From positions 1 through 54,445 of the IMG/VR virus record IMGVR_UViG_3300037462_000386: DNA of 54,445 bases. One strand, written 5' to 3'. Positions 3,712-9,946 of this stretch are shown piece after piece. Within the stretch, counting starts at the first letter, position 1. The number at the start of each line of letters is the position of its first letter. The DNA is from a virus. Its lineage: Duplodnaviria; Caudoviricetes. The notes under the pieces were generated by a model. It did no database searches. It was not told the DNA's origin and saw only the letters and a program-made list of their open reading frames with translations. The position numbers and the translations under genes were made by a program.

Positions 3712-4857
3712 TCAGAATTTTTCCTCTGGATTAATCAGTTGGCCATCCTCCCGAATCTCAATATGGAGATGCGGCCCGCTGCCAGTGCCCTCACTCCCAC
3801 ACTCCGCGATCGGTTGTCCATGCTGTACTACTTGGCCATCTTTTACGAGTAATTTTCTCGTATGTCCGATCGTGACCTCGTAGCCGCTACCTGCTACGGT
3901 ACCCCATGAGTTACCGAATCCCTGCGGGTCGCTGTTGCCCTTCCTGAAAGTGCCAGAGATCGGGCTTTTAACCACGTCACCCGCGTTACAGGCGTAATCA
4001 GTGCCATTGTGCGGCCTCACCTCACCAGTAGTAGGATGAGTGCGAGATGCGGACATAGGGCTGGTTACAGTGAGATTTGGCAGGGGTTTGGCAAACTCCC
4101 CATTGCCGAGGCTGCGATCGCGCTGAAACTCCGCGAATTTCCGTGCCAGTATGTCCGCGCCATAGGACTTCTGCCGAGCATCCAGCTTTTTGCCGCTACC
4201 GCTTTGGAGCGAGGCCCAGGTAATCCAACATCGATCGGTAAAGGCTTGAACATCTCCACGCACCGCCGCACCATAGCCGTTGCACTGCTTGATCAGTTCG
4301 ATCGCGGCTTTGTCCTGTGATGCGGGCGAAAAATCTGGCAGCTTTAACTGGGTTTGCAATTTATTCCATGTCGGCGTGAGGAACTGGTATCGGCCCGCTG
4401 CACTGCTGCAAATGCCACCGGAGCAAAGCACCCGATCGGGATGCCGAGAAAAGTCGTCAAACCGAGCGCCAGTGTAAATCATGTTGTAGTGGTTGTCAGT
4501 ACCCTCAGCCCAGGCAATCAGGTCAAGCATGGCAGCGACGTTGCCCTCTGGTGAGGCGGTGATATTCCAAGCGGGGCCGGGGACTTTGCCGCGAATGCAA
4601 TCCCAGGGCTTTGATTTGCAGCTATCCCACCATTTCGTGAGTTGGGTGTAGTTGTAATGGGCGCTGTAGACAGTCCGCGCGATCGCGGTGGAGCTATTCG
4701 CCAAGACAACACAGACAGCACACACAACGCAGAACTGAATGAACTGCCGACGTTCTTCGCGGGCTTTCAGGATCGAGTTGTTCCCACGCAGCAGTTTGAG
4801 CGCTTCGGCGATTTGCTCGTCTGAGAATCGGGGTTTGTCAGTCGCCGAATTTGTCAT
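3712..4857 (-). CDS. membrane-anchored peptidoglycan hydrolase: lambda-type lysozyme plus M23 peptidase
   Basis: N-terminal TM; LDLIAWAEGT..SSAAGRYQFL..DFSPASQD (lambda R-like); HNGTDY and GPHLHIE (M23); ATG 4857 preferred. Confidence 0.85.
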   Translation of the reverse strand: MTNSATDKPRFSDEQIAEALKLLRGNNSILKAREERRQFIQFCVVCAVCVVLANSSTAIARTVYSAHYNYTQLTKWWDSCKSKPWDCIRGKVPGPAWNITASPEGNVAAMLDLIAWAEGTDNHYNMIYTGARFDDFSRHPDRVLCSGGICSSAAGRYQFLTPTWNKLQTQLKLPDFSPASQDKAAIELIKQCNGYGAAVRGDVQAFTDRCWITWASLQSGSGKKLDARQKSYGADILARKFAEFQRDRSLGNGEFAKPLPNLTVTSPMSASRTHPTTGEVRPHNGTDYACNAGDVVKSPISGTFRKGNSDPQGFGNSWGTVAGSGYEVTIGHTRKLLVKDGQVVQHGQPIAECGSEGTGSGPHLHIEIREDGQLINPEEKF

Positions 4858-5005
4858 TGTTGCCGATCGTGGTGCGTTGCTCAGTGGGCTTAGTTTGAGC
4901 GGGTTTGGATTGGTCGCGGAACAGATAGTCAAACAGCGCCAGGTCGTGGCTGATGGCTACCAGAGTGACGGCGACGATAAACAGGGAGAGGGTCTTGTAC
5001 CACAC
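4838..5005 (-). CDS. 55-aa membrane protein (not in ORF track)
   Basis: GTG overlapping the ATPase stop; MWYKTLSLFIVAVTLVAISHDLALF..., one TM. Confidence 0.6.
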   Translation of the reverse strand: MWYKTLSLFIVAVTLVAISHDLALFDYLFRDQSKPAQTKPTEQRTTIGNNDKFGD

Positions 5006-6567
5006 TACAAACCCTCCGTGCGTCGCAGCAGTTCAACGGGATTGATTTTGCCGCTGGCTTCCGACTGGGCAAGGTCACGCAGCAGACAGTAATGAGGATC
5101 GGATTTTTCCCGGCGTCGTCCCCAGCCATCATGTTTAGCGGTGGCTTTGAACGTGGTGAAAAATTCGGTGACGGAGTAATCCCGATCGTCAAATTCAGCT
5201 CGCCGGCGGCGGAGAAAATGGACAAATTCTTGGGCCAGGACTTCGCCGGAATCCGTGCTAGGGGGAGTCGCTTCAACTGGTAAATTTTCGGGTTGGGGTA
5301 GCGCTGAAAAATCATGTCGAACTTGCAATGCGGCGCGGTAATCCGGGATGCGGACGATATGCGCCCCGGCGGCGAACTCGGTGCCATCGGAGCTGGTGAA
5401 CGCATCGACCAAGTGAACCACTCCGAGCATCTTGGCGCTGGCTTTTGGCCCGTAGCGGATGTCGTAGTCGCGGCGCTTGGCCTCTAGCCTGTCCAGGAAG
5501 TCATTACTAAAGCGGCTGCGGCTGTTGCGGATGGTGTTGTCAGTGCGGATGCTATCCAGAACTGAACCAAGCATGAACAGATTCACGCCTGCGAGGTTGG
5601 TAGTGTCAAGGCCGTCCGTGGCTTTGTCGTTGTGGCAGATTGGGTAGAAAAATATTTTGTACTTAGCCGCTCGAATCAAGTCGCCCAGGAAACCGTTGAC
5701 CCGGCTCAGGCCATCGGGGGACAGGCTACCGAGGAAAGTCTGAAACTCATCAACGAAGTAGTAAACAGGTGCGAACTTTTCTGGGGGTTGTCCTTGAGCC
5801 ACACGATCGGCGTTGATTTGCATCCGTCGGTGGTACAGGTCATTCAACGCGCACATCGCGGCGTAGATGTCTTCATTGGCCGCAAATAGGCGGTGATGGG
5901 CGACGATCGACTCGGCCTTATCCCGGCGTCGATCGTACACAGGTAATCCGGCCCAAGCAGGGGGTGGCCCGTCGTCGTTGCCGGTGCCGTAGTTGGGGTC
6001 GCCAACCAGGACAATATTTTTGCTTTGACTGGATAGCAGATTGTGCAACAAGCCATGGGTGAACGTGGTTTTGCCGGACTGTTTGCGGGCAATGTACAGC
6101 GTGTTCATGGGGTTGCGGACGGAGCCAATCACTAACTCCAGGACGTGCTGTTCAACCACAACTTCACCGCCCGCCGAGGCCGATATCGCCTCCTGTTCTG
6201 CCTCACTGAGCAAGCCCGCCGATCGTTGGATTTCTTTGGCCGATCGTGCCAGTACAGGCCGGACTTTGTGCTCCAGGATTTGCGTGCCACCTGTACCGAG
6301 GTCGGACAGCACCTCGAAAACCGCGGCTCCAGCCAATGCGCTGGCCTGGACCAGAGTTTGTCCCCGTAGTCGGATTGAGGCGGTGGTGCCCGCGACAAAA
6401 ACTCCCCCTAGCACGCCGAGGATGACCAAGCCGTAAAACGCGGCCATATAAACTACCGAGCCAGACAGCAGCAGCAAAAAATACTTGGCAGCGAGGTGGG
6501 TCGAGCTGGCGTAATCCGGCTCCACGATTTCGGCTTCGACAGGAATGGCCTCGGTAGTGACAATCAT
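5005..6567 (-). CDS. membrane-bound FtsK/HerA-superfamily P-loop ATPase (TraB/VirD4-like)
   Basis: N-terminal TM helices; Walker A ARKQSGKTT; LVGDP; ALNDLYHRR helix; Walker B PVYYFVDE; C-terminal domain after a Pro/Thr linker. Confidence 0.75.
   Translation of the reverse strand: MIVTTEAIPVEAEIVEPDYASSTHLAAKYFLLLLSGSVVYMAAFYGLVILGVLGGVFVAGTTASIRLRGQTLVQASALAGAAVFEVLSDLGTGGTQILEHKVRPVLARSAKEIQRSAGLLSEAEQEAISASAGGEVVVEQHVLELVIGSVRNPMNTLYIARKQSGKTTFTHGLLHNLLSSQSKNIVLVGDPNYGTGNDDGPPPAWAGLPVYDRRRDKAESIVAHHRLFAANEDIYAAMCALNDLYHRRMQINADRVAQGQPPEKFAPVYYFVDEFQTFLGSLSPDGLSRVNGFLGDLIRAAKYKIFFYPICHNDKATDGLDTTNLAGVNLFMLGSVLDSIRTDNTIRNSRSRFSNDFLDRLEAKRRDYDIRYGPKASAKMLGVVHLVDAFTSSDGTEFAAGAHIVRIPDYRAALQVRHDFSALPQPENLPVEATPPSTDSGEVLAQEFVHFLRRRRAEFDDRDYSVTEFFTTFKATAKHDGWGRRREKSDPHYCLLRDLAQSEASGKINPVELLRRTEGL
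5254..5295 (-). repeat. dispersed motif, 42-bp long form
   Basis: CAACCCGAAAATTTACCAGTTGAAGCGACTCCCCCTAGCACG on the minus strand; near-identical to 16806-16847 and 39113-39154. Confidence 0.9.
6401..6415 (+). repeat. dispersed 15-bp motif ACTCCCCCTAGCACG
   Basis: exact copy. Confidence 0.85.
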
Positions 6568-7124
6568 TGGATGGTTTCGGGTTGCTGTGGGGTGGGCTGG
6601 ATGGTGGTTTGCTCCAGTAGATGTTGTTCGGCCCGTCGCCAGAGTTCGAGTTCCAGCAACAGGGCGTCATACTGACTTGCGATCGGTGAGCCTGGGGGGA
6701 TGATGCGATTTTTCGCCAGGAACTGCCGGAGGGCTTCCTCTTGGTTGCGGATATTTTTGTCCAAGAACTCGGTGGGCTGCGGTGACTGACGGGCTTTGGT
6801 CGCAATCTGCGCAAGGCGATTGTTGTGAATGCGGAGACGCTCAGCCCCGAGGGCAAATATGCGGGCTGTCTCTGGGCCGCGCCCTTCGGCATCGCGTACC
6901 GCCTCGTAGTGATTGATCAAAGTCGTGAGGCGGAACGGGGTCTGCTGGTATCGGTTCAGGGTCTCCTGAGCGATCGCTTTGGTCTGTTCTTCGGTCAACT
7001 GCTCGGCTTGGGCCTGGTCCACATGGGCGCGATGCCAGCGGGCGGCCCCAGCCGTCGCCAATATCGCCAGCATCACGATCACTGACTGAGTAAACACTGG
7101 ATTGCGTAGGCGCTTAAGTTTCAT
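6564..7124 (-). CDS. single-TM coiled-coil protein
   Basis: N-terminal hydrophobic helix, Q/E/R-rich helical body; 4-nt overlaps with both neighbours. Confidence 0.7.
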   Translation of the reverse strand: MKLKRLRNPVFTQSVIVMLAILATAGAARWHRAHVDQAQAEQLTEEQTKAIAQETLNRYQQTPFRLTTLINHYEAVRDAEGRGPETARIFALGAERLRIHNNRLAQIATKARQSPQPTEFLDKNIRNQEEALRQFLAKNRIIPPGSPIASQYDALLLELELWRRAEQHLLEQTTIQPTPQQPETIQ

Positions 7125-7315
7125 CGGCGGGGCTTAACGATTTTGTCGTATGGCTGCGTATTTGCTTCGACCGTCTCCCCGATCGACTGCATCACAACCT
7201 TCGGCTTCACTACGTAGCCGTCACCCGATTTTTGGATTGCGCCATTGACGACGCTTCCCACGATCGCGGGTAGGACGACAAGCCAACCAATGATGGCGAG
7301 AGGTTTTGAAAACAT
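7121..7315 (-). CDS. small membrane protein
   Basis: LAIIGWLVVLPAIVGSVV TM; GAGGT RBS upstream. Confidence 0.65.
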   Translation of the reverse strand: MFSKPLAIIGWLVVLPAIVGSVVNGAIQKSGDGYVVKPKVVMQSIGETVEANTQPYDKIVKPRR

Positions 7316-7318
7316 GAA

Positions 7319-7465
7319 TCACCTCAGAATCAGTGCGAGAACGAAGCCGATGAACATCAGGGAAGTAAAGCCGATCACAACGCTGCCCAGTACCGCCTGA
7401 ACCGTCCGCAGGGCTTGGGGGAGCAGCACGATCAAGGCAATGATTTTTAGGGTTTTGTCCAGCAT
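7319..7465 (-). CDS. 48-aa highly hydrophobic protein (not in ORF track)
   Basis: MLDKTLKIIALIVLLPQALRTVQAVLGSVVIGFTSLMFIGFVLALILR; stop 3 nt before the next start. Confidence 0.65.
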   Translation of the reverse strand: MLDKTLKIIALIVLLPQALRTVQAVLGSVVIGFTSLMFIGFVLALILR

Positions 7466-7632
7466 TTCGGGAGCCTCTGTGTACAGGTTTATGGGCCGAT
7501 ATTAGCTGAAAGCCTTGGTCTAGCGGTAGTCCACGCGGTTTTGTGCGGTTGTACCAGTACAGAGTGAGCGGCTGAGCTGTACGCTGTGCGGGCTGTACTG
7601 GCACGGGTTCGATCGAGCGGCCTGAACATCAA

Positions 7633-7809
7633 TCAGGGCGGGGATGCACGGCGGCTCAAGTGGGGCAGTTGCACAGCGTTTTTAGGAGCAAAATCCGGGA
7701 TTTTGGCTTTTCCACCTTGGCTCAGAAGTAGCCCGATCGTGCAGCCCACGCAAAGCAGGATGACGGCCCCGGTTAACCGCCAGTAGCTCCGGGGACGGGA
7801 GGCTTTCCC
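7633..7809 (-). other. candidate -1 programmed frameshift site and extension frame encoding a TM helix
   Basis: in-frame G_GGA_AAG at 7809-7803, CCCCGG/CCGGGG hairpin 8 nt downstream; -1 frame GKASRPRSYWRLTGAVILLCVGCTIGLLLS... has no start codon ahead of the TM segment. Confidence 0.6.
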
Positions 7810-8324
7810 ACGGTGGAAACCTGGCCATTGAGTGTATTCATCCCTCGCGAGATGCCGTTAGCTCCAGCTCGGACAACCTTTTGGGCTACCTGCTCTTCTA
7901 TCCCAGCACAGAGGGCATCCAGCCCTCGATCGAAGGTAGCAAACTGCTGGGCCAGCGATTGCTCGATCTCAGCCAGCTCGGCCTGACTCTGCTCACGGAT
8001 TGCCAAAGCGGCGTCCATGGGTCTAGGCGTATCGTTGTACAGAACCAACTCACCGTTGTACACAGTTTCGGTGCCGAGTTGCGGTGTTGCGGTGTTGTGT
8101 TGCGGTGTTGTGTTGCGGTTCAGTTCAGCCCGGATGCGCTCCTGTTCCGCTGTACTGAGCAGCTTGCGCGATTTGTTGTGCGGGTCGGTGTATCCCTTTA
8201 TTTGCAGGTGTGAGCGCTTGCACACCTTTCGCAGGTACGCGGGGGTGATGTTGAGCGTTTTGGCAAACTCGCCCATGGATGGATCGGTCTCAGTTGCGGT
8301 GTTCAGTTGCGGTGTTGCGGTCAT
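7773..8324 (-). CDS. HTH/wHTH DNA-binding protein with coiled coil
   Basis: SMGEFAKTLNITPAYLRKVCK HTH; heptad-rich C-terminal half; NTATPQ repeats. Confidence 0.7.
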   Translation of the reverse strand: MTATPQLNTATETDPSMGEFAKTLNITPAYLRKVCKRSHLQIKGYTDPHNKSRKLLSTAEQERIRAELNRNTTPQHNTATPQLGTETVYNGELVLYNDTPRPMDAALAIREQSQAELAEIEQSLAQQFATFDRGLDALCAGIEEQVAQKVVRAGANGISRGMNTLNGQVSTVGKPPVPGATGG

Positions 8325-8355
8325 AGTTGCGGTGTTTTAGTTGCGGTGTTGCGGT
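8078..8355. repeat. cluster of ten 8-bp repeats GTTGCGGT
   Basis: copies at 8078, 8086, 8099, 8112, 8293, 8306, 8314, 8326, 8340, 8348; the last three lie upstream of the start codon. Confidence 0.9.
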
Positions 8356-8373
8356 GTTTCGCACTTGCATACT

Positions 8374-8402
8374 AAAAGAGCCAGCCCGCGTGGGACTGGC
8401 TC
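8374..8402 (-). terminator. hairpin with T-tract (terminator/attenuator)
   Basis: GAGCCAG-N11-CTGGCTC followed by TTTT on the minus strand. Confidence 0.5.
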
Positions 8403-8425
8403 AAGGGAAGGGATATTTGTAAAAA

Positions 8426-8692
8426 TTACAAATTCTCGAGAGTTTCACCGCTGAGGGCTTCGGCGATCGACGGTGGCATGTAGGCGCGGATATGATAAAT
8501 CCACAGCAAGGCCATATCTCCCCGCGAGGGCGACTGCCGACCGCTGAACCAACCGTTTACAGTATCGATCGACCTGTCTGTGATTGCGGCGATTTGAGCA
8601 CGGCTTAACTCTGGGTAGAGTTCGGTGAATCGCTCGATCGATAGGATTGATTGGTCCATGCTCTGGATTATTTTGCGCGGGTGTGATTTCAT
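8426..8692 (-). CDS. XRE-like HTH regulator
   Basis: LSRAQIAAITDRSIDTVNGWFSGRQSPS. Confidence 0.75.
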   Translation of the reverse strand: MKSHPRKIIQSMDQSILSIERFTELYPELSRAQIAAITDRSIDTVNGWFSGRQSPSRGDMALLWIYHIRAYMPPSIAEALSGETLENL

Positions 8693-8770
8693 TTTGGCAG
8701 CTCCTGTCGATGCGCGTCGGTGGGAGTTAGAAGCTGTTGCCGAGTTACTGGTTCGGCAACAGCTTTGATT

Positions 8771-9217
8771 TTAACGAACGCCAGCCCCAAGGGTTGTCTT
8801 GGGCGGCTGTTGTCGGCATTTTCGAAGCCTTTTGTCGTTGTACATTTTTGCGTCGGCCACCCGAATCGCGGCCTCCAAATCGGTGGCCAGGTTGCTCCGA
8901 CCAGCACTCCAGTATTTCAGCGGGGGCAGTTCGCCCCGATCGCTGAAGGCTAGGAGCTCGTCGCCACCCCAGTGGATTAGGTAGTCGGTGGAGCGGCGAA
9001 AATGTTGGTACAGCTCGGCGATCCCGGCCTGGATATGCCGATCGCCTGCCTCGTGGCCCTCTTTGTCGTTGATTTGCTTTAACCCGTCCAGATCGAAATA
9101 CCACACGTAGCGGTATCGGCGGGCAATGCGTCGATCGAAGGCAGTGCGAGTAATTAATCCCGTGAGGGGATGGGTCGTAATTTCTTGGTATCGACGAGCA
9201 GAGACGATGCGGAACAT
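8771..9217 (-). CDS. stand-alone GGDEF (diguanylate cyclase-like) protein
   Basis: HPLTGL, FDLDGLKQINDKEGHEAGD, WGGDEL, ADAKMY motifs; ATG 9217 preferred. Confidence 0.85.
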   Translation of the reverse strand: MFRIVSARRYQEITTHPLTGLITRTAFDRRIARRYRYVWYFDLDGLKQINDKEGHEAGDRHIQAGIAELYQHFRRSTDYLIHWGGDELLAFSDRGELPPLKYWSAGRSNLATDLEAAIRVADAKMYNDKRLRKCRQQPPKTTLGAGVR

Positions 9218-9266
9218 GGTGGTGTGTGGTGTGTGGTGGACACCGAGCATCAACAGGGGGATCGGT

Positions 9267-9539
9267 TTAACGCTTTGGCTGTTTTTCTGGTTTTGGTGCG
9301 TCCGGTAGCTTGCCGCAGTTCGCAACCTGTTTCTTCCATCTCAGATTGGTTGCCCGGGAGTCATGCCCTTGCCTGATCCGCTGATCCCTGATCCGGTGGG
9401 CATCTTTTAGGCACTGGCTGTACGTGTAAACTGCCTGCCCACTGCGCGGTGGGTTGGGGATTTTGATCTGTGCCTGAGCCGAGACAGTCGAAAATCCCAG
9501 CGCTGCAAAACCCAGCGCTACTGCAATAATTGGTTTCAT
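9267..9539 (-). CDS. small secreted protein
   Basis: signal peptide MKPIIAVALGFAALGFSTVSAQA; two Cys. Confidence 0.65.
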   Translation of the reverse strand: MKPIIAVALGFAALGFSTVSAQAQIKIPNPPRSGQAVYTYSQCLKDAHRIRDQRIRQGHDSRATNLRWKKQVANCGKLPDAPKPEKQPKR

Positions 9540-9946
9540 GGTTTGAGCGTGTCTGGTGGACTGACTCAACCAGCTAGCCGCCCGATCGTTGGCAGTGTGC
9601 AAGACTCCCAGCGATCGGGCCGTCAACAACAAGGGGTACTCTTACTGGTAGTCGCATCCACATCGATCGAAAATATCAACGGCTCCGCCGCAGTCTTCGC
9701 ACCAAGCGATCGCGGATTCTTCTAATACGGCGGCGGTGAATTGGCTGAGGTTATTCATCTTGATTGTGGACTTAGAACGATTCGACGATTTCCCAGGCCC
9801 GATCGGGTTCGATGGCGCGTACCGCTTTCGCCATTGCGGCAAAGCCCATCGGACGGGGGAGTTTGATTGATTTCGATGCGTCCAACTTGCGATTTTCGAG
9901 AATTACGGTCATATTGAAGGAACTCCAAAGTAGCTATTGGTGAACT

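Follow-up and report, generated by a model that had tools for sequence, protein, structure and literature searches.

The virus record IMGVR_UViG_3300037462_000386 is a linear sequence of 54,445 bases (hereafter the window, that is, the whole stretch of DNA that was analyzed) with an estimated completeness of ∼75%. It encodes terminase, portal, minor tail, and integrase-like proteins together with a DnaB helicase and therefore looks like a temperate tailed phage; no tRNA gene was found in it. The subject of this work is a gene on its minus strand (positions 7773–8324), whose nearest relatives lie in cyanobacterial genomes, and the heptanucleotide GGGAAAG close to the end of this gene, a candidate site for a programmed −1 frameshift that would add a membrane anchor to a predicted DNA-binding protein. 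The site consists of the following elements.

Positions 7773–8324, minus strand: 0-frame open reading frame (ORF) of 183 amino acids, in which a predicted winged-helix DNA-binding domain is followed by a repeat linker, then by a long helix, and finally by a short Pro/Gly tail.
Positions 7803–7809, minus strand: slippery heptamer G_GGA_AAG in the X_XXY_YYZ register, with GGA AAG as codons 173–174.
Positions 7773–7775, minus strand: 0-frame stop codon TAA, overlapping the −1-frame TTA (Leu) that opens the hydrophobic segment.
Positions 7633–7803, minus strand: −1 extension of 56 codons, followed by TGA (7635–7633) and beginning with a second reading of G7803.
Positions 7723–7776, minus strand: predicted hydrophobic helix in the −1 product (sequence LTGAVILLCVGCTIGLLL), with SRPRSYWR on its N-terminal side; the maximal Kyte–Doolittle value over 15 residues is 2.78.

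Around the heptamer the gene reads ...ACC GTG GGA AAG CCT..., with AAG as codon 174, and nine sense codons lie between the heptamer and the 0-frame TAA. A gene caller places the start at 8276, which gives 167 instead of 183 residues. The −1 frame is open from 7857, following a stop codon at 7860–7858, and contains no ATG, GTG, or TTG until a GTG midway through the hydrophobic stretch. The −1 extension reads ASRPRSYWRLTGAVILLCVGCTIGLLLSQGGKAK...SPP and is laid out as ASRPRSYWR-LTGAVILLCVGCTIGLLL-SQGGKAK...SPP; the predicted fused product has 174 + 56 = 230 residues. The original prediction for this locus had placed an in-frame G_GGA_AAG nine codons ahead of the stop, and its register and position were verified at 7809–7803. 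Its products of 183 and about 230 residues and its statement that no start codon precedes the −1 frame hold as well, there being none between the stop at 7860–7858 and the slip site, whereas its count of 58 open −1 codons had to be corrected to 56. The membrane helix that it had assigned to the −1 frame is borne out by a basic flank and a hydrophobic segment that lies far beyond the −1-frame null described below.

Comparison with relatives reveals conservation of the heptamer, of the arrangement of the two frames, and of a hydrophobic −1 tail, as well as constraint on the synonymous positions of the heptamer. Ten winged-helix homologues were compared at the DNA level (the window and the loci L002, L006, L009–L014, and L017). 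An alignment of homologues had been proposed with the original prediction as a check, and it came out in its favor: an in-frame GGGAAAG is found 6–10 codons ahead of the 0-frame stop in nine of the ten (all but L006), and all nine possess a hydrophobic −1 tail. These nine heptamer loci represent the virus record and seven cyanobacterial genomes. Their −1 extensions comprise 20–60 residues and begin with Ala, followed by 2–4 Arg or Lys residues and then by a hydrophobic run. Twenty-one alignment columns hold one degenerate residue in all nine loci, 19 of which use 2–5 codons; the remaining two, each with one codon throughout, correspond to GGA and AAG in the heptamer, which indicates that selection acts on the nucleotides and not on the Gly-Lys pair. 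The codon preceding GGA is GTG, CTG, or TTG, always with G as third base.

The −1 tails themselves also bear a coding signal. Their maximal mean Kyte–Doolittle hydropathy over 15 residues ranges from 2.19 to 2.78 in eight of the nine loci and is 1.43 in L009, whereas none of 245 −1-frame pieces from 33 genes of the window, used as a null, has a value of at least 2.19, and 10 have at least 1.43. When the window is compared with L002 over an ungapped block of 25 codons, the −1 frame contains 12 identical, 7 synonymous, and 6 non-synonymous codons; in the other two frames the ratios of synonymous to non-synonymous codons are 2:10 and 1:11. The core of the tail, GCTIGLLLSQGGKAK, is identical in both. 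The ∼50 nucleotides coding for GCTIGLLLSQGGKAK (window 7725–7760, minus strand; L002 6558–6606) are >90% identical between two loci whose proteins are otherwise 53% identical; this nucleotide identity exceeds what the peptide needs, and no conserved RNA fold accounts for it.

In all nine loci, the part of the −1 frame that leads from the preceding stop to the slip site is free of ATG, GTG, and TTG. In five of them (window, L002, L010, L011, and L017) no start codon precedes the hydrophobic segment, and in the other four one is found at codon +10, just before or at the beginning of the hydrophobic run. One genome, G888, carries two copies of the family (L011 and L017, 66% identical), each with GGGAAAG and a hydrophobic −1 tail (60 and 24 residues, respectively). 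Among five homologues available as proteins only, three (P0004, P0005, and P0006) end with ...GGKP, ...GGK, and ...GGKP at the position of VGK in the window. Judged from its relatives, the frameshift layout is clearly more than chance, and we consider it very probable that a programmed −1 frameshift at GGGAAAG is real and used.

The homologues were collected by several searches. A word-indexed protein search returned the window's own protein only, and blastn against phage records gave no match. An exhaustive search of 1.84 billion representatives (E ≤ 0.001) yielded seven proteins, namely the window's own, P0003–P0007 (157–193 residues), and P0008 (433 residues), a weak match that was left out of the analysis. 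No fused homologue of ∼230 residues was found among these representatives or in a search of longer proteins, and the tail alignment A5 matched nothing at E ≤ 1, at near or longer lengths, in a set of 5.8 billion protein clusters. Viral contigs searched with the 183-residue protein, the neighboring ATPase, P0003, P0006, and A5 contained no relatives, nor did metagenome contigs scanned with A2 and A5. L002 was found in a scan of GTDB species genomes; it belongs to a cyanobacterial metagenome-assembled genome, and its protein is 53% identical to that of the window. L006 and L008/L009 came from profile searches of cyanobacterial genomes (the order of G001 and a class sample), and the order of G563 yielded six more loci when it was searched with A7, a widened profile.

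Matches were obtained in 3 of 401 genomes of a phylum sample with A1 and in 1 of 401 with A7, in 3 of 90 genomes of the order of G001, in 3 of 401 of the class sample, and in 8 of 173 of the order of G563, two of which were weak and were dropped. Loci L004, L005, L007, L015, and L016 (E from 7.9e-6 to 7.5e-4) matched in the helical part only, in frames of 314–724 residues, and were left out uninspected. The family is thus also found in chromosomal loci of cyanobacteria and falls into two subfamilies, with only 21–32% identity between them and 53–83% within each.

From the window sequence alone, the evidence goes only weakly beyond chance. Across 45 ORFs of the window there are 14,872 in-frame positions; 49 of these carry an XXXYYYZ heptamer, which in 24 cases contains AAA or TTT in the form XXX(AAA/TTT)N. 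The −1 frame stays open for at least 56 codons at five of the 49 and reaches past the 0-frame stop at two. Because open −1 frames of at least this length follow five of the 49 heptamers, one of which is an ordinary gene start, a single sequence cannot decide. With a 3-periodic Markov model, for which 30 long ORFs served as the training set, the extension scored best in the −1 frame, at −1.3 versus −10.8 and −17.0 in the other two frames; these scores are similar to those of the adjacent small hydrophobic genes. Two other candidate frameshifts in the window were rejected. GGGTTTG (5014–5008), the other heptamer followed by a hydrophobic −1 frame, precedes an ORF with its own GTG and a GGAGG upstream, and the pair 42931–43401 and 43376–44164, considered as a chaperone-type frameshift pair, has an ATG of its own for the second ORF.

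The reading-frame break is present in a second assembly, a Logan contig from the public run X1 (depth ∼20) that is identical to the window over 7500–8400 with no gaps; this agreement represents a second assembly and not independent reads, since X1 may be the source sample. Among the sequencing runs listed as containing the stretch there is one DNA run and no RNA run. The same frame layout in eight other loci from seven other genomes is independent of the window's assembly.

The heptamer G_GGA_AAG is the slippery site of phage lambda G-T, and the mechanism of its slippage is textbook knowledge. The lambda G-T frameshift reaches a few per cent and, to our knowledge, likewise takes place without a stimulatory RNA structure. 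For the present site, the original prediction had proposed a CCCCGG/CCGGGG stem (arms 7794–7789 and 7772–7767, minus strand) 8 nucleotides past the heptamer. Arms and spacing are indeed present. The stem is neither conserved nor exceptionally stable: its arms are absent from the minimum-energy fold, they are not kept in the closest homologue, L002, and the folding of the heptamer region has a z score of +0.74, with 150 of 200 shuffles at least as stable. The two closest sequences together give only a weak consensus fold, and no Rfam match was obtained at E ≤ 1 in 7300–8500. The proposed stem and every alternative fold were rejected as a conserved stimulator. Since the search for a conserved stimulatory structure in the RNA came out negative, the anchored form is likely to be the minor product. 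In E. coli, G_GGA_AAG is among the most shift-prone heptamers according to the parts of PMC5009743 and PMC4066793 consulted here.

Several observations weigh against a frameshift that is efficient or general to the family. Over the 70 nucleotides past the heptamer, the nine loci have z scores from −3.0 to +0.7 and share no stem or pseudoknot, only L012 standing out, and no shared Shine–Dalgarno-like element is evident upstream in them. The best V_VVA_AAG heptamers without a stimulator yield ∼0.3% in an E. coli reporter, according to the consulted part of PMC4066793, so the frameshift yield could be very low. In L006 the heptamer is replaced by A_GGA_AAG and the −1 frame closes after two codons, and the C termini of P0003 and P0007 are not GK. 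The tails of L009, L010, and L017 contain only 12–14 hydrophobic residues, which is short for a membrane-spanning helix. In L012 a GTG and in L013 and L014 an ATG overlap the 0-frame stop (GTGA and ATGA, respectively), and a separate small membrane protein is therefore possible at these three loci. Moreover, the nine loci do not amount to nine independent events, because they come from two cyanobacterial orders and one virus record, and the case for the frameshift is comparative throughout.

The overlapping start codons lead to the alternative that the hydrophobic ORF encodes a small membrane protein of its own, made by coupled restart near the 0-frame stop, with no frameshift. Apart from L012–L014, L009 has a TTG two codons past the stop, in each of the nine loci the 0-frame stop sits at the N-terminal border of the hydrophobic segment, and the window itself holds a precedent at 5005–4838, where a GGAGG precedes a GTG that overlaps the ATPase stop. 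However, the overlapping position reads TTA in the window and L002, GTA in L011, and CTG in L010 and L017, and coupled restart cannot apply to these five of nine loci because no ATG, GTG, or TTG precedes their hydrophobic run. It also leaves unexplained why GGA and AAG are kept as single codons (2 of 21 columns) and why 2–4 basic −1-frame residues lie between heptamer and stop, and no protein in the −1 frame has been called among the 5.8 billion clusters. We regard this alternative as very unlikely. The absence of a stimulatory structure, a yield that may be below 1%, and −1 tails that vary widely in length (20–60 residues) and sequence would also suit a slippage that is real but regulatory or incidental, for instance in tuning the amount of the 0-frame protein, with a functionless −1 peptide. 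Yet such a peptide would not remain hydrophobic in nine loci (0 of 245 in the null), would not keep its basic flank, and would not have accumulated 7 synonymous versus 6 non-synonymous changes over a block whose other frames have 2:10 and 1:11, which makes this explanation very unlikely.

Two explanations dispense with slippage altogether. The heptamer might be kept for Gly-Lys in the 0 frame, with a −1 frame that is open and hydrophobic by coincidence; open −1 frames are common at 56% G+C (5 of 49 run for at least 56 codons), and the expectation per window from a single sequence is not negligible. Conservation of amino acids leaves the codons free, though, as the other 19 invariant columns with their 2–5 codons demonstrate, and hydrophobicity of this degree is found in 0 of 245 null pieces, so that we consider coincidence highly improbable. 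That the locus is one continuous ORF, broken by a sequencing or assembly indel or by recent decay into a pseudogene, could be suspected of a metagenomic virus record with short homopolymers in the overlap. The gap-free agreement of the X1 assembly at a depth of ∼20, the break at the same heptamer in eight other loci of seven genomes, and the failure to find a fused homologue among the 1.84 billion representatives or the longer proteins reduce the likelihood of this explanation to a practically negligible level. A programmed −1 frameshift thus remains the preferred explanation.

The protein that would be extended by the frameshift has no significant Pfam match, with neither MerR nor DUF536 at E ≤ 0.1, and no PHROG match at E ≤ 0.01. 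An AF2 model built from the six-row alignment A1 predicts a winged helix at residues 12–71 (pLDDT ∼79–89 by 10-residue blocks), a disordered linker at residues 72–96, and a single long helix at residues 103–168. MerR-type winged helices ranked first in Foldseek, with weak E-values of 0.04–0.2. Upon structural re-alignment, the DNA-binding domain of pSK1 Par (8csh_A) superposed best (Z 8.4, rmsd 1.1 Å, 53 of 53 residues), followed by RacA (5i44_B, Z 7.8). As Z scores under 8 are common, the winged-helix match represents a fold-level lead with good coverage of the domain. At that level, the model is in line with the DNA-binding protein of the original prediction and suggests a MerR-type winged helix closest to those of pSK1 Par and RacA.

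Candidate binding sites for this domain are found in and next to the gene.

Positions 8293–8357, minus strand: five exact direct copies of ACACCGCAAC, in the 5′ leader and first codons.
Positions 8078–8108, minus strand: three exact copies of ACACCGCAAC within the gene, encoding the disordered NTATPQ linker.

All eight exact copies of ACACCGCAAC in the window lie within 8078–8357. With up to one mismatch there are 16 matches, a number that none of 100 shuffles reaches. In L002 the one-base variant ACACCGGAAC occupies the same two places (L002 5962–6239), and this change of a single base between ACACCGCAAC and ACACCGGAAC hints at co-variation of protein and site. L020 possesses 11-bp repeats just upstream of the gene (8628–8813). 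The repeats of both the window and L002 are also intragenic, where they encode a disordered NTxTP linker. Replication functions are encoded in a module of their own in this phage, with DnaB and an HTH_36/DnaD-like protein; a role in partition or tethering therefore fits the protein better than one in the initiation of replication.

The gene probably opens a new transcript, since a terminator-like hairpin lies upstream of it, and it is followed by hydrophobic proteins, a P-loop protein, and a cell-wall hydrolase.

Positions 8378–8402, minus strand: terminator-like hairpin and T-run, upstream of gene 7773–8324.
Positions 7319–7465, minus strand: small hydrophobic ORF of 48 residues, downstream of the gene.
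Positions 7121–7315, minus strand: small ORF of 64 residues with a hydrophobic N terminus.
Positions 6564–7124, minus strand: ORF of 186 residues with an N-terminal hydrophobic stretch, then a charged Gln/Glu-rich region; no family match.
Positions 5005–6567, minus strand: P-loop protein of 520 residues whose N-terminal part contains a hydrophobic segment; a resemblance to HerA/FtsK is suggested by Atlas leads only.
Positions 4838–5017, minus strand: uncalled ORF of 55 residues with an N-terminal hydrophobic helix; start codon GTG at 5005–5003.
Positions 3712–4932, minus strand: cell-wall hydrolase with Peptidase_M23 and an endolysin-like part; listed start TTG at 4932.

The 520-residue P-loop protein has no Pfam, PHROG, or PDB sequence match. 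Its Atlas leads consist of a feature score of 0.93 to a cluster with DUF87 in 40% of its members and of TM scores of 0.43–0.48 to FtsK clusters. The GTG of the 55-residue ORF shares a base with the ATPase stop codon TAG (5007–5005) and has a GGAGG 7 nucleotides upstream. Because this ORF overlaps the listed TTG start of the M23 peptidase, the true start of the peptidase probably lies downstream of 4838.

The order of homologue, hydrophobic protein or proteins, and a Walker A protein of 500–590 residues is found in the window, L002, L018, L020, and L021, and an M23 (or lysozyme) hydrolase then follows in three of these five Walker A loci (window, L018, and L021). The ATPases of the window, L002, and the L018 group form three groups with no detectable sequence homology to one another; the shared gene order is therefore one of architecture and not of sequence. 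This module order (window 3712–9325, minus strand) is seen in the phage record as well as in chromosomal contigs of cyanobacteria. Just upstream of the module, an ORF of 184 residues (8771–9325, minus strand) contains a partial GGDEF domain (Pfam E 1.2e-11, profile positions 5–86 of 161). A small Cys-rich protein (window 9642–9842, minus strand; L002 1483–1812, minus strand; 42% identity over 48 residues) has the motif ...DCG...D.CxCDY and is encoded by the only other gene that BLAST links between the window and L002 loci.

Frameshifting in phages is mostly known from tail genes. In the consulted part of PMC10885494, 2397 of 2476 frameshift genes annotated by SEA-PHAGES are tail assembly chaperones, which agrees with the remark in the original prediction that a frameshift outside these genes is unusual. 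The lambda G/G-T frameshift has counterparts in most tailed phages. As in lambda G/G-T, a −1 shift on the same G_GGA_AAG shortly before the 0-frame stop would produce two proteins, a short one and one with a C-terminal extension, whose ratio is presumably fixed. Unlike lambda G/G-T, the present gene is part of a minus-strand module away from the tape-measure-sized ORF of 1666 residues (44724–49724, plus strand), its product has no PHROG match at E ≤ 0.01, its extension is a predicted membrane anchor and not a tape-measure-binding domain, and its family also occurs in cyanobacterial chromosomal loci. An identity as a tail assembly chaperone of the G/GT type was ruled out by gene position and by the lack of a PHROG family at that threshold.

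The −1 shift on an X_XXA_AAG-type heptamer and the two products with a common N-terminal part are also features of dnaX (tau/gamma) and of IS3/IS911. These systems use a Shine–Dalgarno-like element together with a hairpin or pseudoknot and shift with high efficiency, whereas no stimulator is conserved here; in dnaX, moreover, the shifted product is the shorter one. The strong stimulators of dnaX- and IS3-type frameshifts are stated in part in the consulted portion of PMC4066793.

In domain plan, the predicted protein resembles RocS of Streptococcus pneumoniae, Par of the Staphylococcus plasmid pSK1, and RacA of Bacillus subtilis, MerR-type winged-helix proteins that serve in the segregation or anchoring of DNA. 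According to the consulted part of PMC11500499, these have in common a winged helix, a coiled coil, and a C-terminal anchor to membrane or pole, the anchor being an amphipathic membrane helix in RocS, a predicted one in Par, and DivIVA at the pole for RacA. The predicted protein would share with them an N-terminal MerR-type winged helix, a central long helix, a C-terminal anchor (here from the −1 tail), and candidate binding sites in the form of direct repeats located at the gene or upstream of it. It differs in that sequence comparison does not place it in this class (neither MerR nor DUF536 matched in Pfam at E ≤ 0.1), in that its anchor is a predicted hydrophobic helix and neither an amphipathic helix nor a DivIVA contact, in that some of its repeats lie within the coding sequence, and in its neighborhood, where genes for membrane proteins, for a P-loop ATPase, and for a cell-wall hydrolase are found. 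Because its anchor would be reached only by frameshifting, it would also exist as two isoforms, unlike RocS, Par, and RacA.

Cases in which recoding decides whether a product carries a transmembrane region are the transcriptional slippage of Ebola virus GP/sGP and the −2 frameshift of arterivirus nsp2TF, and the consulted part of PMC5009743 mentions recoding as a membrane switch only for Ebola virus and arteriviruses. The likeness to the present site lies in this outcome, whereas these are animal RNA viruses with other mechanisms and unrelated proteins. A bacterial or phage frameshift that adds a membrane anchor was not found in the full-text literature, a search whose scope did not extend to survey supplements and recoding databases. 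In the literature searched, no description was found of the gene family, of the membrane-anchor outcome, or of the module; the heptamer and its slippage were already known.

A mechanism consistent with these features would run as follows. Most ribosomes would stay in the 0 frame and produce the soluble protein of 183 residues, and a minority would slip back by one base on G_GGA_AAG, through tandem slippage of tRNA-Gly and tRNA-Lys, to make the form of ∼230 residues. The last 56 residues of this form would start with a basic stretch, cross the membrane once as a helix, and end in a tail of ∼29 residues; since the basic residues are N-terminal to the helix, the positive-inside rule implies that the DNA-binding part should stay cytoplasmic. 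Both forms share the long helix and might therefore assemble into mixed oligomers, which could bind the ACACCGCAAC repeats in and just upstream of their own gene and hold the DNA at the membrane. DNA tethered in this way would adjoin the membrane proteins and the P-loop ATPase encoded downstream, an arrangement reminiscent of how RocS, pSK1 Par, and RacA connect DNA with the membrane or the cell pole. We infer the oligomers, the DNA binding, the membrane insertion, the yield, and the link to the ATPase from the features described above; co-assembly and DNA tethering beside the ATPase, as the original prediction had envisaged them, are suggested by architecture and gene order.

As a tentative possibility, we propose that a fixed-ratio frameshift produces the soluble and tail-anchored subunits of a tether similar to Par, RacA, and RocS, and that the isoform ratio sets the share of oligomers that is bound to the membrane. 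The gene would then be the first of a previously undescribed module in cyanobacterial phages and integrated elements, consisting of a DNA anchor, small membrane proteins, a membrane FtsK/HerA-like P-loop ATPase, and a cell-wall hydrolase, which would hold or move the repeat-marked DNA of the element itself at the membrane, and its anchor would be the first membrane anchor added by recoding in a bacterium or phage.

The locus described here points to a conserved family outside the tail genes in which a predicted frameshift decides between a soluble and a membrane-anchored form of a predicted DNA-binding protein. If true, this would constitute a new recoding family that has been overlooked by gene callers and would provide a simple natural system for stimulator-free slippage in cyanobacteria. 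It would likewise draw attention to a module, conserved in cyanobacterial mobile elements, that combines a DNA anchor with a membrane ATPase and a cell-wall hydrolase. Finally, it would mean that translation can determine the coupling of DNA to the membrane, a task that falls to an amphipathic helix in RocS and Par.

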